Part shown: piece by piece, positions 22,651-39,271 of the stretch
How positions within the stretch are numbered: position 1 is the first letter of the stretch
Layout of the letters: each line of letters opens with the position of its first letter
IMG/VR virus record: IMGVR_UViG_3300012996_000001
Coordinates: 64,001 to 128,000 of that record
DNA: 64,000 nt
Source of the DNA: a virus
Taxonomy: Duplodnaviria; Heunggongvirae; Uroviricota; Caudoviricetes
Reading direction: 5' to 3' (one strand)
Made by a program: the position numbers and the translations under genes
The notes under the pieces: generated by a model
What the model saw: the letters and a program-made list of their open reading frames with translations, nothing else
The model's database searches: none
Told to the model about the DNA's origin: nothing

Positions 22651-22926
22651 ATGCGAACTTTTAATATCGACTTTTTATATTTCCACAGCAGCATTGGTGA
22701 CGACGTGGCCGTTGAGGTTGAATCGATCATTGCCAAAGCCATCCCGAACCCAGCTTCCGACTGGGATTCAGCAGACCATATCGAAATCGTATCTGCGACT
22801 GTGTACCACCAAGGCGAGGTCATTGACGTTGACATTCCCGCGAAAGTAATTTACGCTGAGATCTCGGCTCGAATTCGCGACGCCGAAATCAACTCTGCAT
22901 TCGCAGAAGAATCCGGTAGCTTCTGA
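22651..22926 (+). CDS. hypothetical protein
   Basis: RBS AGGAG. Confidence 0.65.
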   Translation: MRTFNIDFLYFHSSIGDDVAVEVESIIAKAIPNPASDWDSADHIEIVSATVYHQGEVIDVDIPAKVIYAEISARIRDAEINSAFAEESGSF

Positions 22927-23105
22927 TGAGAACTAAAATCTTGGTTATCACCAACCCCAGTGTACTCGAAGGTAAGATAGACCAGCTTGTTAACAGCGAC
23001 GGTTTTAAACTTGTTGGCCCGGTGACTATGGGTTTTAACCAAAACAACACCCCTGTTTATGTAGCGACGCTGATCAAGGAAGATCCTCTAAAAGGAGAAA
23101 ATTGA
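22926..23105 (+). CDS. small hypothetical protein (59 aa)
   Basis: Hand-translated MRTKILVITNPSVLEGKIDQLVNSDGFKLVGPV...; TGATG coupling. Confidence 0.5.
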   Translation: MRTKILVITNPSVLEGKIDQLVNSDGFKLVGPVTMGFNQNNTPVYVATLIKEDPLKGEN

Positions 23106-33603: not shown

Positions 33604-33630
33604 AAACCGCCTTCGGGCGGTTTTTCTTTT
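33604..33630 (+). terminator. intrinsic terminator (UUCG loop)
   Basis: AAACCGCC-TTCG-GGCGGTTT-TTCTTTT. Confidence 0.88.
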
Positions 33631-33645
33631 TCTGGATAAAAGTAT

Positions 33646-33674
33646 TTGACATCCCTGATCTCCGTGTATAGAAT
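33646..33674 (+). promoter_or_regulatory. strong sigma70-like early promoter
   Basis: TTGACA-17-TAGAAT with A/T-rich upstream tract; AAAGGAG RBS downstream. Confidence 0.8.
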
Positions 33675-33705
33675 TCAATCAACAAAATAAACAAAGGAGA
33701 CAATC

Positions 33706-34035
33706 ATGAGTTATAAAATTCACGAGCAAAAACTTCAGCAGTTTTACAAAGAGATTCTTGAATGGTTTGACGCAGGAACTCCCAAACACCCAGTGTTTCG
33801 TAAAATTTACGGCCTATGTGCTAATCTCGGGGTTTGGCTGGATGCCAATGTGGAAGATTTACAAGAGAATCAGGAAATTTGGGATCAGCAGTCCATACTG
33901 TTTAGAAAACTTTATGGTGATTCTCAATTCCCTTTCGGAGAAGAAGATTATAAATTAGAAAGTAAGGCAAGGAATCACTTTAAAAACGAAAAACGATTAG
34001 CTTTCCTTCGTTCACAAGCAGGAGAACAAAAATGA
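33706..34035 (+). CDS. paralog array member 1 (unknown function)
   Basis: FYKEILEW..G.P.HPVF...GLC.NL..WLD...LYGDSQFPFGEEDY...KNEKRLAFLR. Confidence 0.8.
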   Translation: MSYKIHEQKLQQFYKEILEWFDAGTPKHPVFRKIYGLCANLGVWLDANVEDLQENQEIWDQQSILFRKLYGDSQFPFGEEDYKLESKARNHFKNEKRLAFLRSQAGEQK

Positions 34036-34352
34036 AGATTACTTTACAAGACTTTTATAAAGAAATTCTTGAGTGGGTGGATACAGGCACCCCATTCCAC
34101 CCTGTGTTTCGTAACCGAATGGGTCTCTGTGGTAATTTGAGCCGATGGTTGGATCATAAAAAGCTGGATTACGATGAGGACGCTTTAATTTGGAAGCGCC
34201 AGAACAAACTTTTTAATGATCTCTATGGCGATTCTCAATTCCCTTTTGGAGAGGAGGATTACAAAAAAGATTTCTTCAAAAAGGGCACTCATTACAAAAA
34301 CGAGAGTCGTTTGGCTTTCATCCGCGCACAGGTGGAGGTAGAGGATGATTAA
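34032..34352 (+). CDS. paralog array member 2
   Basis: FYKEILEWVDTGTPFHPVF...GLCGNL..WLD...LYGDSQFPFGEEDY...KNESRLAFIR. Confidence 0.8.
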   Translation: MKITLQDFYKEILEWVDTGTPFHPVFRNRMGLCGNLSRWLDHKKLDYDEDALIWKRQNKLFNDLYGDSQFPFGEEDYKKDFFKKGTHYKNESRLAFIRAQVEVEDD

Positions 34353-34671
34353 TTTAAATAATGCTGTGCTGAAAGAATTTTATTGTGAACTTGAGGAGTG
34401 GATCAATGAGGGTTGCCCGCACCACGAGGTGTTCAACCCTATGCGTGCCTTGTGTTCTACGCTATTACACTGGTCGAGAAACAAACAACACAATTGGAAA
34501 GTGACAAACGTCTTGTACACTCTTCAACAGTATTGGTTTATTAAAGAGTGTGGTATTAACTCACAATACCCTTTCGGGAAGGAGAGTTACAGAGTAGAGG
34601 CTGTAACAACGGGCCATTACACCAACCAAAAACGTCTTAACTTTATCCGCAGCATGATGAGGGTCCTTTAA
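34345..34671 (+). CDS. paralog array member 3
   Basis: FYCELEEWINEGCPHHEVF...ALC..L..W...SQYPFGKESY...YTNQKRLNFIR. Confidence 0.8.
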   Translation: MINLNNAVLKEFYCELEEWINEGCPHHEVFNPMRALCSTLLHWSRNKQHNWKVTNVLYTLQQYWFIKECGINSQYPFGKESYRVEAVTTGHYTNQKRLNFIRSMMRVL

Positions 34672-35018
34672 TGAATGATAGACTGTTAGAAAAGCACCGT
34701 AAGAAATTGAAGAAGTTTTATCAAGAACTTGTTGTGTGGATCGATAAGGGTATGCCTGAACACAAGGTTTTTGCAAAAGACGAGACCCTGTGTCCTACTT
34801 TGCAGCGCTGGTTAGAGAATTTACCTTGGTGGCAAGTTTGTTATTACGATTTAGCTACTATATTTATCCTCCAGAGGGATGAGTTTATAAAATTTTCGGG
34901 CAACCCCTCATTCCCTTTTGGTAATTATGATAATCACTTAAAAGAGATTTATGGTGGGGAAGTGTATCAGAATACTTCCCGTGTTGATTATATTCGCAAG
35001 CAGGCAGGAATGGTGTAA
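34671..35018 (+). CDS. paralog array member 4
   Basis: FYQELVVWIDKGMPEHKVF...TLC..L..WL...PSFPFGNY...YQNTSRVDYIR. Confidence 0.8.
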   Translation: MNDRLLEKHRKKLKKFYQELVVWIDKGMPEHKVFAKDETLCPTLQRWLENLPWWQVCYYDLATIFILQRDEFIKFSGNPSFPFGNYDNHLKEIYGGEVYQNTSRVDYIRKQAGMV

Positions 35019-35174: not shown

Positions 35175-35417
35175 ATGAAAATCATTAAACAAATACAAAA
35201 ACAAGTTAATTACTTTGGAATTACCCTATCAGTACCTTCTTGGTCCAATTACTTAGCCACAGACTCTGATGGGGAAGTGTGGGCATTTTGCAACAAGCCG
35301 AAAGCCGAAGGTAAAGACTGGGTTTTATCCAGGGGTATCGAAGCGGAACACGTAGCGAATGTCGATCTGGAAGGTGAAGACTGGAAAAACACTTTAGTGA
35401 AGTACGGAGAAGAATAA
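35175..35417 (+). CDS. conserved small phage protein
   Basis: VNYFGITLSVP...YLATDSDGEVWAF..KP...DWKNTL. Confidence 0.7.
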   Translation: MKIIKQIQKQVNYFGITLSVPSWSNYLATDSDGEVWAFCNKPKAEGKDWVLSRGIEAEHVANVDLEGEDWKNTLVKYGEE

Positions 35418-35824
35418 TGAAGACAATGTATCTCCTCCGGGGTGTTTCCGGGTCAGGCAAATCTACGTTCGCAAAGAGACTGGCATCCCTGACGGGCGGT
35501 TTTCATTGTGAGAACGACACCTACCACACCGATGCTAACGGTGTGTACAAGTATGATATTGCCAACAAGGAGGCGGCTCAGGACTGGTGTTATAGCCAAA
35601 TAGTGGATAAAATGCGCCTTGGTGAAAAAGACGTCATTGTTGCAAATACCAACACCGATAATCTCAGCATCCATAAATATCTTGAAGCGGCCAGAATCTT
35701 CGGGTATACTGTGGTTTCACTGGTTGTTGAGAACAGGCACGGCAATAACTCAATCCACGACGTACCTGAGCGTATCCGGGATACACAAGCGAGTGAAATT
35801 ATCCAAAGCTTAAAACTTAAATAG
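35417..35824 (+). CDS. P-loop kinase-like protein (AAA_33 type)
   Basis: LLRGVSGSGKST...VIVANTN...HDVP. Confidence 0.8.
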   Translation: MKTMYLLRGVSGSGKSTFAKRLASLTGGFHCENDTYHTDANGVYKYDIANKEAAQDWCYSQIVDKMRLGEKDVIVANTNTDNLSIHKYLEAARIFGYTVVSLVVENRHGNNSIHDVPERIRDTQASEIIQSLKLK

Positions 35825-35832
35825 GGGATAAA

Positions 35833-36120
35833 ATGAAAAAAGAATATGATATCCAAAATATCTGCGTAAAAGACAATGATCTCTTTCCAGAGGAAATCAA
35901 TAAAATTGTCCAGTTATGCAACGAGAAGGGCGCTAACTTTTGGAAAGACGGTAAAAGTTACCTGCGTGCGTCAGGAAATGGCTACACTTATCTTGAGAAA
36001 AATAAGGATGGGTGTTGGGACGTCAATGGCTTTAACGGAGGTTCTCTTGGGAAAGAGATCGTTGACGGGGAAACTTGGGTCAGTGTGGCAATGAAAACAT
36101 TGGAGACTCAAAATGACTAA
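35833..36120 (+). CDS. paralog pair member A
   Basis: YDIQNICVKDNDL...LCNEKGANFW...YLEKNKDGCWDVNG. Confidence 0.75.
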   Translation: MKKEYDIQNICVKDNDLFPEEINKIVQLCNEKGANFWKDGKSYLRASGNGYTYLEKNKDGCWDVNGFNGGSLGKEIVDGETWVSVAMKTLETQND

Positions 36121-36403
36121 ACAATTTGATATCGAAGATGTCTGTATTAAAAATAAAGACCTCTCTGAGGGCCTTGCACAAAAGCTAGTAGACCTTTGCA
36201 ATAACAAGGGTGCCAGCTTTTGGAATTCCGGGTCTGAGTTACTGGCCTTCACCTGTGATTCGGATTTTATGTACCTGGAAAAAGATGAAGATGGTTTTTG
36301 GGATGTAAATGGGTCTACTCGAAACTTCCGTCCGGACATGGAAGTCGTCAGTGCGGAGGTATTTTTTGAAGTGGTCAGTAAAACCTTAGGAGATGCAAAA
36401 TGA
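36113..36403 (+). CDS. paralog pair member B
   Basis: FDIEDVCIKNKDL...LCNNKGASFW...YLEKDEDGFWDVNG. Confidence 0.75.
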   Translation: MTKQFDIEDVCIKNKDLSEGLAQKLVDLCNNKGASFWNSGSELLAFTCDSDFMYLEKDEDGFWDVNGSTRNFRPDMEVVSAEVFFEVVSKTLGDAK

Positions 36404-36755: not shown

Positions 36756-38783
36756 ATGATGACCGTAACTTTTCATGATTTCGTAGCTAAGCTGCAAAAA
36801 CAATTATCAACTATGAGCCAGACTGGCCTGTTTGAAGTGACTCTGGATAAAGATGCTGTTTGGGACACCTACCTGAACTCATTCCCGGCGGGTACGAACC
36901 TGATCTTCCGGGAGCGTCGCGAATACGATTGCAACTGCTGCAAGCAGTTCGTGCGTGATGTTGGCCGTGTGGTGACATTTGTTGACGGCAAGCGTGTATC
37001 TATCTGGGATATTAACGTAGGTGGTTATTACCAGCCTGTCGTTGACGCATTGTCAAAAATGGTTAAGTCAGCGCCTGTCGGCGATGAGTTCCTGCATTAC
37101 CAGGCTAAAGTTGGCAATGCACAAAGCAACGTACTGGAAGGTGATGAAGTTGTTACCTATCACCACTTCCATGCGGTTCTGCCGAAGCAGTTCGTCAAAC
37201 CAAACAAAGATATTGCAACGGCATTGTCTCTGAGCCGTGCCGATGTGCAAGTTCTGGAGCGTAGCCTCGAAGAACTGACAGCGGAAGCTGCGGAAACCAT
37301 TTTGGAGCTTAATGCCCAAGGTTCTCTGTATCGTGGTAACGAACAGATTAGCAGCGTTACGCTGTTCTTAGACTTGAAGCGCAAGTACGACACACTGAAT
37401 GCCGAAGGGAAAGAGGCTTTCGTATGGAAAAAAGGCAAAGAACTCGGATCTCGTGGTAAATTCCGAAACTCTGCGATCGGCACACTGCTGGAAGACCTGT
37501 CTGGCGGTATGGACATCGAGTCTGCGGTTAAGCGTTGGGAAAAGGTAATGGCCCCGGCAAACTACAAGCGAACAACCGCTTTAGTAACGGAAGCCATGAT
37601 CAAGAAGGCTCAAGAGAAAGTTCAGGAACTGGGTTTGATGGATTCTCTATACCGTCGCTACGCTGTGCTGGAAGACCTCACCGTGAACAACGTGCTGTTT
37701 GCGGATCGTTCAACCAAGAAAGCCACCGACGTATTTGGCGACCTGCTGAAAGACTCGAAGAAACCTGTGAAAGGTCCTTCGAATATCGAGCAGATCCCTA
37801 TTGCCAAGTTCATCTCTGATGTCCTGCCAACGGCAACCGGACTGGAAGTTTTGATGGAGAACCGACTGACAGGTAATCTGGTGTCGCTGATTGCCCCGGT
37901 TTATCCTGATGCACCCAACATGCTTAAGTGGGACAAGAACTTCTCTTGGTCTTATAACGGTGAAGTGACCGACTCGATCAAAGAGCGTGTGAAAGCTGCT
38001 GGCGGAGCAGTTGATGGTGAGTTGCGTGCCTCTCTGTCTTGGCATAACGGTGATGACCTCGACCTTCATATGTTCGAGCCATCAGGTGACCGTCTGTACT
38101 ACGGTAATCGTAGCTATGCTTCGAAGAATGGTGGACAGCTTGACGTAGACATGAATGCAGGTGGTCCAAAAAACCCTAAAGACCCGGTGGAGAATATTAT
38201 TTATCCTCGCCGCAATGGTCGTAAACAAACGCCGGGTATTTATACGGTGCAGGTTAATCAGTACAGCCAGCGCGACTTTGATAACCCACAAGGTTTCGAA
38301 GTTGAGGTTGAATACAAAGGTGAAATCTACACTTTCGCCCAGAAAACCAACCCTCGGTCTTCGCAGACGGTGCAGGTGGTTAAATTCCGTATCACTGAAG
38401 ACGAAAAGCTGGTTATCATCGAAAGCATCGACCACAGCAAGCAGTCTAAAGAAATTTGGGGTGTGAGCACCGAACAGTTCCAAAAAGTGTCACTGGTGAT
38501 GAACTCACCTAACCACTGGGACGGACAGGCTGTTGGCAACAAGCACTACTTCTTCATGCTGGAAGGTGCGAAGCAGCCGGGGACCACACGCGGTTTCTAT
38601 AACGAATACCTGCGTAACGACCTGAATGATCATCGCAAAGTGTTTGAACACTTGGCAGGTAAAATGAAAGTTCCTGCTTCGGACGATCAACTGTCGGGCT
38701 TGGGTTTCTCTGATACCCAGCGCAACGAACTGACCGTCAAAGTTACTGGGGCGTTTACCCGTACAGTTAAAGTAATTTTTTAA
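36756..38783 (+). CDS. conserved phage protein (675 aa) with Cys motif and YfaP/DUF2135-like domain
   Basis: EYDCNCCKQF; ASLSWHNGDDLDLH...GQLDVDMN...PVENI. Confidence 0.8.
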   Translation: MMTVTFHDFVAKLQKQLSTMSQTGLFEVTLDKDAVWDTYLNSFPAGTNLIFRERREYDCNCCKQFVRDVGRVVTFVDGKRVSIWDINVGGYYQPVVDALSKMVKSAPVGDEFLHYQAKVGNAQSNVLEGDEVVTYHHFHAVLPKQFVKPNKDIATALSLSRADVQVLERSLEELTAEAAETILELNAQGSLYRGNEQISSVTLFLDLKRKYDTLNAEGKEAFVWKKGKELGSRGKFRNSAIGTLLEDLSGGMDIESAVKRWEKVMAPANYKRTTALVTEAMIKKAQEKVQELGLMDSLYRRYAVLEDLTVNNVLFADRSTKKATDVFGDLLKDSKKPVKGPSNIEQIPIAKFISDVLPTATGLEVLMENRLTGNLVSLIAPVYPDAPNMLKWDKNFSWSYNGEVTDSIKERVKAAGGAVDGELRASLSWHNGDDLDLHMFEPSGDRLYYGNRSYASKNGGQLDVDMNAGGPKNPKDPVENIIYPRRNGRKQTPGIYTVQVNQYSQRDFDNPQGFEVEVEYKGEIYTFAQKTNPRSSQTVQVVKFRITEDEKLVIIESIDHSKQSKEIWGVSTEQFQKVSLVMNSPNHWDGQAVGNKHYFFMLEGAKQPGTTRGFYNEYLRNDLNDHRKVFEHLAGKMKVPASDDQLSGLGFSDTQRNELTVKVTGAFTRTVKVIF

Positions 38784-39245: not shown

Positions 39246-39271
39246 AAACCGCCTTCGGGCGGTTTTTTATT
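39246..39271 (+). terminator. intrinsic terminator, same hairpin as 33604
   Basis: AAACCGCC-TTCG-GGCGGTTT-TTT. Confidence 0.88.

Follow-up and report, generated by a model that had tools for sequence, protein, structure and literature searches.

A variable tandem array of coliphage N4 gp3-like genes in an IMG/VR phage genome

Introduction

Coliphage N4 carries one copy of gene 3, whose product gp3 is a protein of about 100 residues with a signature of F, W, C, PF, N and R positions. The same domain is found in Nankokuvirus PAK_P3, where a clustered array of eight domains, including one fused double, adjoins the genome terminus. Two described systems offer a frame for arrays of this kind. In the poxvirus-type gene accordion (K3L amplification), acute selection gives rise to copies that are near-identical because they are recent. 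The small early "monkey-wrench" proteins of phage T4 and the counter-defence genes of phage accessory regions form the second; both concepts are described in PMC4933390 and bioRxiv 10.1101/2023.04.06.535777.

Here, a stretch of 64,000 nucleotides (the window; positions 64,001 to 128,000 of IMG/VR record IMGVR_UViG_3300012996_000001, Caudoviricetes) was analysed. It encodes four tandem paralogues (w1 to w4), which share the length and signature of N4 gp3 and are the only family members in the 146,410-bp record; the record has direct terminal repeats. The PAK_P3 array contains the same domain but represents an independent expansion (own clade, support 96) that does not follow the polymerase gene, and its members are more diverged from the family profile than the window copies. 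Like the poxvirus accordion, the window family forms a tandem array in which copy number shifts by unequal recombination, as seen here in a hybrid junction gene; unlike it, the copies are 34-62% identical, saturated in dS and stably maintained under purifying selection. Like the T4 and accessory-region genes, the family is small, soluble and non-essential, occupies variable slots at conserved positions behind host-type promoters and evolves fast relative to the core; T4 itself, however, has no family member. The link to N4 gp3 and PAK_P3, a confidently predicted fold with no solved relative, recurrent independent expansions and a recombination junction are added by this work. The most likely reading, given a probability of roughly 40%, is that these are host-directed accessory proteins for host takeover (of the "monkey-wrench" type) or counter-defence.

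Results and Discussion

Organisation and transcription signals of the array

The four genes follow the DNA polymerase gene in the order given in Table 1, and all four reading frames are intact. The stop/start overlaps along the array are ATGA, ATGATTAA and TAATG, and the next small gene begins at position 35018 in the same manner; because every start overlaps the preceding stop, the block was regarded as translationally coupled. End-to-end alignment of the four copies gave 24 invariant columns. Amino acid identity to copy 1 was 59-62% for copy 2 and 34% for both copy 3 and copy 4, and the four copies vary in sequence from the helix 2-3 loop to the end of helix 3. An earlier note on this DNA had described four coupled paralogues here, and open reading frames, overlaps, full-length alignment and the PHROG matches given below all bear this out. 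Its observation that copies 1 and 2 share an identical peptide and 38 of 44 nucleotides, with synonymous differences only, was exact; the common peptide is 15 residues long, and over all 15 codons 39 of 45 nucleotides are the same.

Table 1. Positions of the array, its signals and neighbouring genes in the window.
Feature	Position	Strand	Description
Intrinsic terminator	33604..33633 (stem-loop 33604-33623)	+	ends the DNA polymerase unit; 8-bp GC-rich stem, TTCG loop, T-run
Sigma-70-type promoter	33646..33674	+	TTGACA-17-TAGAAT; 11/12 consensus matches; predicted
Shine-Dalgarno sequence	33694..33699	+	AAGGAG, 6 nt before the ATG of copy 1; kept in L007
Copy 1 (w1)	33706..34035	+	109 aa; N4-gp3-like five-helix domain (AlphaFold pLDDT 95.3, pTM 0.87)
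Copy 2 (w2)	34032..34352	+	106 aa; start codon overlaps the stop of copy 1 (ATGA)
Copy 3 (w3)	34345..34671	+	108 aa; start overlaps the end of copy 2 by 8 nt
Copy 4 (w4)	34671..35018	+	115 aa; both ends overlap the neighbours as TAATG
P-loop kinase (PNK-like)	35417-35824		135 aa; AAA_33 / PHROG 2071
Second tandem paralogue pair	35833-36120, 36113-36403		95 and 96 aa
Slot-bounding conserved gene	36756-38783		675 aa; PHROG 1735; L007 orthologue recorded as Pfam DUF8224

The GC content falls from about 0.50 in the polymerase gene to 0.37-0.42 in the array, in agreement with the AT-richness that had been judged by eye. The terminator (UUCG loop in the transcript) and the promoter, both proposed in the earlier note, were recovered as the best-scoring sites of a 10-kb scan. 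In L007, a metagenomic relative, the terminator, the -35 and -10 hexamers and the ribosome binding site are conserved and 7 of the 17 spacer bases differ. Since the hexamers were kept while the spacer diverged, this phylogenetic footprint supports the predicted promoter as real. A second metagenomic relative, L028, also carries these elements.

The window contains exactly two copies of the 20-nt terminator stem-loop AAACCGCCTTCGGGCGGTTT, at 33604-33623 and 39246-39265. They flank an accessory region that reaches from the array through a 132-aa gene, and they have equivalent positions in L007 and L028. In coliphage N4, an intrinsic terminator with a TTCG loop (1081-1103 in the L019 locus) precedes gp3, as it does the window array. 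A placement of N4 gp3 as the first gene behind a vRNAP hairpin promoter was considered and rejected: P1, P2 and P3 lie at 90, 559 and 4548, gp3 comes after the terminator that follows the P2 unit, and gp3 to gp14 are situated between the P2 unit and P3.

Expression of the array at the start of infection, as claimed previously, was an overstatement deduced from the sigma-70-like promoter. PAK_P3 was the sole phage with RNA-seq data found to carry family members. Transcripts of every one are present at 3.5 min, with an early bias for gp114 and gp118, a later rise for gp117 and gp121 and flat profiles for the rest (PMC4933390, S5 table).

Family membership and distribution

All four copies matched PHROG 2510 over their full length (E 7.5e-14 to 2.7e-19) and PHROG 2176 (E 7.8e-9 to 1.8e-14). 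Because each copy separately matches both, their homology is far above chance. A profile built from the four copies retrieved at least 949 representatives (clusters at 50% identity) at E <= 1e-3; these are mostly 95-125 aa long, and some comprise two domains and one comprises three. Coliphage N4 gp3 matched a profile of the window homologues with E 4e-22, and PAK_P3 gp114-118, gp120 and gp121, all uncharacterised ORFans, belong to the family with E 1e-6 to 5e-14. Both PHROGs are annotated as of unknown function. Judged by these sequence matches, the family is catalogued yet uncharacterised, and the window genes are additional members of it and not an undescribed system. The earlier suggestion of an unassigned, undescribed family was thus right in that no function or fold has been assigned, and the profile search met no well-characterised family; it was wrong in that PHROG 2510 and PHROG 2176, with N4 gp3 and seven PAK_P3 genes, already hold it.

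Members were found in Schitoviridae, Autographiviridae, Straboviridae, rV5-like and PAK_P3-like myoviruses, jumbo phages and lambdoid prophages, and all hosts seen are Proteobacteria. Seven copies are present in Stephanstirmvirinae phage phAPEC8, four in PhiW-14 and four, in tandem after the ligase gene, in the T4-like Yersinia phage JC221; PAK_P3 contributes its eight domains as gp114-118, gp120 and the fused gp121. Single copies are carried by Autographiviridae phage phiAp1 (in the host-promoter early region), by Schitoviridae phage N4 (gp3, in the left arm) and by a Lonsdalea lambdoid prophage (in the nin region, after O and P). The genomes of T4, T5, rV5 and LUZ7 contained no family member. 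The third tandem copy of JC221 (L008 4323-4628; about 22671-22979 of the record) is unannotated, and the record calls a 141-nt ORF, JC221_039, inside it.

Searches of the four copies against Pfam and NCBIfam gave nothing significant, and PADLOC returned a single sub-threshold match (E 0.025 over 36 residues). A Pfam scan of 117 aligned homologues detected no significant domain, and a sequence-profile search of the PDB gave no match. Longer relatives in which the family domain is fused to other domains were not found. The larger genes that lie among the members in PAK_P3 and PhiW-14 belong to no Pfam family, and no common partner was identified among them. A literature search by PHROG number, N4 gp3, PAK_P3 gene names and accessory-gene screens yielded no functional study.

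Phage lineage and the variable slot

The window polymerase (876 aa, intact) is 84% identical to those of Pectobacterium phage PcCB7V and Cronobacter phages CR3 and CR8, all of the genus Certrevirus (Vequintavirinae), and the window phage is a Certrevirus-like myovirus. No family member was present within 5-7 kb after the polymerase gene in nine Certrevirus loci. At the two of these loci that were inspected, CR3 and PcCB7V, an unrelated 208-aa gene follows the polymerase gene; it was considered as a fused double of the family and rejected, its sequence being unrelated. Scanning IMG/VR for patterns taken from the family alignment and from copy 4 gave no relatives.

The two metagenomic relatives, L007 with three copies and L028 with four, have the order polymerase, array, small genes and DUF8224 protein. 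Because they keep this synteny and the Certrevirus isolates have no members, the array is a cassette that occupies a variable slot flanked by conserved genes. The remaining genes of the unit encode a PHROG 1972 protein, an AAA_33/PNK-like kinase, a second tandem paralogue pair, a PHROG 11281 protein and the 675-aa PHROG 1735/DUF8224 protein.

Replication genes adjoin family members in the window, in JC221 (the ligase gene) and in the lambdoid prophage (O and P). This neighbourhood is in keeping with a phage-internal accessory factor, such as a regulator or a helper of assembly or replication whose targets are phage DNA, RNA or proteins, and so are the later rise of some PAK_P3 copies in infection and a recurrent, very weak likeness of the predicted structure to winged-helix/HTH domains (Z 3-4.2). 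Such Z scores are at noise level, however, and the median pI of about 5.7 speaks against nucleic-acid binding. The family is, moreover, missing from the closest Certrevirus isolates and from rV5, T4, T5 and LUZ7; because these phages have no members, it is dispensable for the basic phage cycle. An internal role was therefore rated as unlikely, and dispensability is one of the points that fit the preferred reading of host-directed accessory proteins.

Copy-number change by recombination

Family members number 0, 1, 3, 4, 7 or 8 per genome. A fixed copy number was not seen: the window lineage has 0, 3 or 4 copies, and up to seven or eight occur elsewhere. L028 copies 2-4 are 98% identical to the three L007 copies (m1 to m3), and L028 has an additional first copy. 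Nucleotides 1-38 of L007 m1 are identical to L028 copy 1, and from nucleotide 39 onwards m1 matches L028 copy 2 with one mismatch in 101 aligned nucleotides. The BLAST segments overlap at the junction by 32 nt, within a conserved stretch that encodes the N-terminal motif FYKEILEW. The DNA missing from L007 amounts to 305 nt, exactly one repeat unit. The same mosaic was obtained independently by a maximum chi-square analysis of the informative sites of w1, w2 and m1 (p = 0.0002). Most simply, copies 1 and 2 of a four-copy array underwent unequal homologous recombination, which left three copies, the first of them a hybrid gene.

The tolerated loss bears on the possibility that the four paralogues are obligate subunits of one hetero-oligomeric complex and not independent specificity variants. 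All four genes are translationally coupled, proteins with two or three fused domains exist and a fused pair was modelled as compact, as such a complex might lead one to expect. On the other hand, N4, phiAp1 and the Lonsdalea prophage have single copies, the arrays arose independently with different copy numbers, and a near-identical relative manages with one copy fewer. Given the single-copy phages and this tolerated loss, an obligate complex is quite unlikely.

Age of the copies and selection

In the family tree, the copies of PAK_P3 (8), JC221 (4), PhiW-14 (3) and phAPEC8 (2) each formed one clade, with SH-aLRT values of 96, 98, 82 and 95, respectively. Because each phage's copies form their own clade, multi-copy expansion was repeated and independent in at least four other phage lineages. 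The window lineage has three deep paralogue lines in common with L007, namely w1/w2-m1, w3-m2 (support 100) and w4-m3 (support 99). Amino acid identity is 68% between w3 and m2 and 85% between w4 and m3 (dN 0.069, dS 0.33). L028 is collinear with the window over its four copies, with identities of 52, 66, 67 and 86.5% for positions 1 to 4; divergence thus declines along the array from position 1 to 4. Among the paralogues, which are 34-62% identical in amino acid sequence, dS was saturated or not computable, and this saturation shows the duplications to be old.

The polymerases of the window and L007 share 99.2% identity (dN 0.004, dS 0.64, omega 0.006). For the array genes, identity is 61-85% and omega 0.13-0.21, about 25 times the polymerase value. 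The other cassette genes have omega 0.10-0.15. The array genes are kept under purifying selection. The dS between window and L007 is 0.33 for copy 4 and about 1.6-1.7 for copies 1-3, an unevenness that suggests allelic exchange within the cassette. The gene accordion proposed in the earlier note therefore stands in part: copy number varies and the junction supports the mechanical side of the idea, unequal crossing-over, but not recent amplification, as the copies are saturated in dS and constrained.

These values also bear on whether the copies are functionless selfish or decaying duplicates, for which a family of unknown function, the AT-rich block and the location in a variable slot could be cited. 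Intact frames, omega 0.13-0.21 and retention of the signature residues in every copy all contradict decay, as do at least 949 clusters spanning many phage families and the transcription of the PAK_P3 members, and this explanation is highly improbable. Evolution that is fast yet constrained fits proteins directed at the host.

Signature residues and predicted structure

Conservation was computed over 117 diverse members with a mean identity of about 25%. F13, W20, C38, P76 and R97 are invariant (C38, R97, P76 and F77 at 99-100%), followed by F77 (99%), F31 (95%), N94 (93%), G24 (88%) and P26 (81%). The signature F13, W20, C38, P76-F77, N94 and R97 is present in each window copy. The conserved Tyr, Glu and His residues are located in loops and at helix ends. 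The motif skeleton of the earlier note holds family-wide in its invariant positions, whereas its His28 is conserved in just 69% of members; H104 is conserved in 57%. A metal-type set of three or four conserved Cys/His ligands was not found. With C38 as the sole invariant Cys and no second conserved ligand, a classical His/Cys metal site, as had been envisaged, is unsupported.

An AlphaFold model computed with the 117-sequence alignment was confident (pLDDT 95.3, pTM 0.87) and comprises five helices (2-22, 37-48, 52-70, 79-88 and 95-104) and two conserved loops. The proteins are hydrophilic and predicted to be soluble and all-helical, with about 100 aa and a pI of 5.6-8.7 (family median 5.7). 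A Foldseek search of the monomer model against the PDB gave no match with E below 0.8, and the best Z scores in a wide VIA-align search, 5.0 for the monomer and 4.7 for a fused pair, are at noise level for helical proteins; winged-helix/HTH domains recur among the structure matches. A search of viral structures in BFVD returned uncharacterised phage proteins only, and the ESM Atlas gave no usable match, the Atlas models themselves being poor. In the model of a fused two-domain member (pLDDT 93.7, pTM 0.79), a four-residue linker joins the domains, which make up a single compact unit, and no fold relative of this model was found among solved structures by Foldseek or VIA-align. Both halves of the fused forms retain the signature. 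The fused forms and the compact model, as judged by its pTM, suggest that neighbouring copies may pack together.

The conserved positions raise the question of whether the domain is a small enzyme or a small-molecule binder, for instance a sponge for a host signalling molecule or metabolite, with paralogues that differ in ligand or kinetics. The invariant polar residues Cys38, Arg97 and Asn94 (the last at 93%) could form a putative pocket together with conserved aromatic residues; their invariance suits a ligand binder or enzyme no less well than a protein-protein inhibitor. Conservation of C38, R97, P76 and F77 at 99-100% and of N94 at 93%, at so low a mean identity, together with the Tyr, Glu and His residues of the loops and helix ends, would be expected of an active or ligand site more than of an evolving protein interface. 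Phages are known to use sponges that form oligomers, and the modelled fused forms may point to oligomers. No likeness in sequence or fold to any solved enzyme or sponge was detected, however, and there is no obvious precedent for catalysis by a five-helix domain of 100 aa with one Cys. This explanation was accordingly judged somewhat unlikely, yet it deserves attention beside that of a host-directed accessory protein.

Proposed host-directed function

If the proteins act on the host, as preferred here, a conserved face would bind a common partner or ligand found across Proteobacteria, or would mediate self-association, and the divergent surfaces of different paralogues would cover different variants of a host target. 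Arrays might then broaden the range of hosts or defence alleles that the phage can handle. Several features fit: unrelated phages, virulent and temperate alike, carry the genes in variable slots of an early type; close relatives that have no member show them to be dispensable; the proteins are small and predicted to be soluble; expansion was repeated; and members are restricted to phages of Proteobacteria. Against it stand a gene-wide omega well below 1, with no sign of an arms race, and PAK_P3 members that are not uniformly early. The neighbourhoods inspected had no partner gene in common, and neither an informative domain fusion nor a fold relative was found. A bolder version can be put forward tentatively and is rather doubtful: the N4-gp3-like domain might represent a new fold and a new class of counter-defence or host-takeover protein, with arrays as specificity repertoires, directed at variable host targets and remodelled by unequal crossing-over.

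With at least 949 clusters at 50% identity, this is a large family that has no Pfam entry, solved structure or assigned function. It is a tractable target, with repeated array expansion, gain and loss of units by recombination at a conserved motif, and genes in the model phages N4 and PAK_P3. If host-directed, such arrays would give large virulent phages a general means of carrying specificity repertoires; if the protein is an enzyme or ligand binder, the fold itself would be of interest.

Other genes of the slot

The 675-aa PHROG 1735 gene is 83-84% identical to its L007 orthologue (omega 0.115). The AAA_33/PHROG 2071 kinase is missing from L007, where merely a 19-residue remnant match was detected. 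The second tandem paralogue pair (95 and 96 aa) had no PHROG or Pfam match. L007 has one gene of this pair, which shares 83% identity with the second copy in the window and 42% with the first; the duplication of the second pair is therefore also polymorphic among relatives. In L007 (4492-7897), the polymerase gene is interrupted by an HNH endonuclease ORF into parts of 778 and 116 aa, and similar interruptions are present in the polymerase genes of CR9 and PBES 02.
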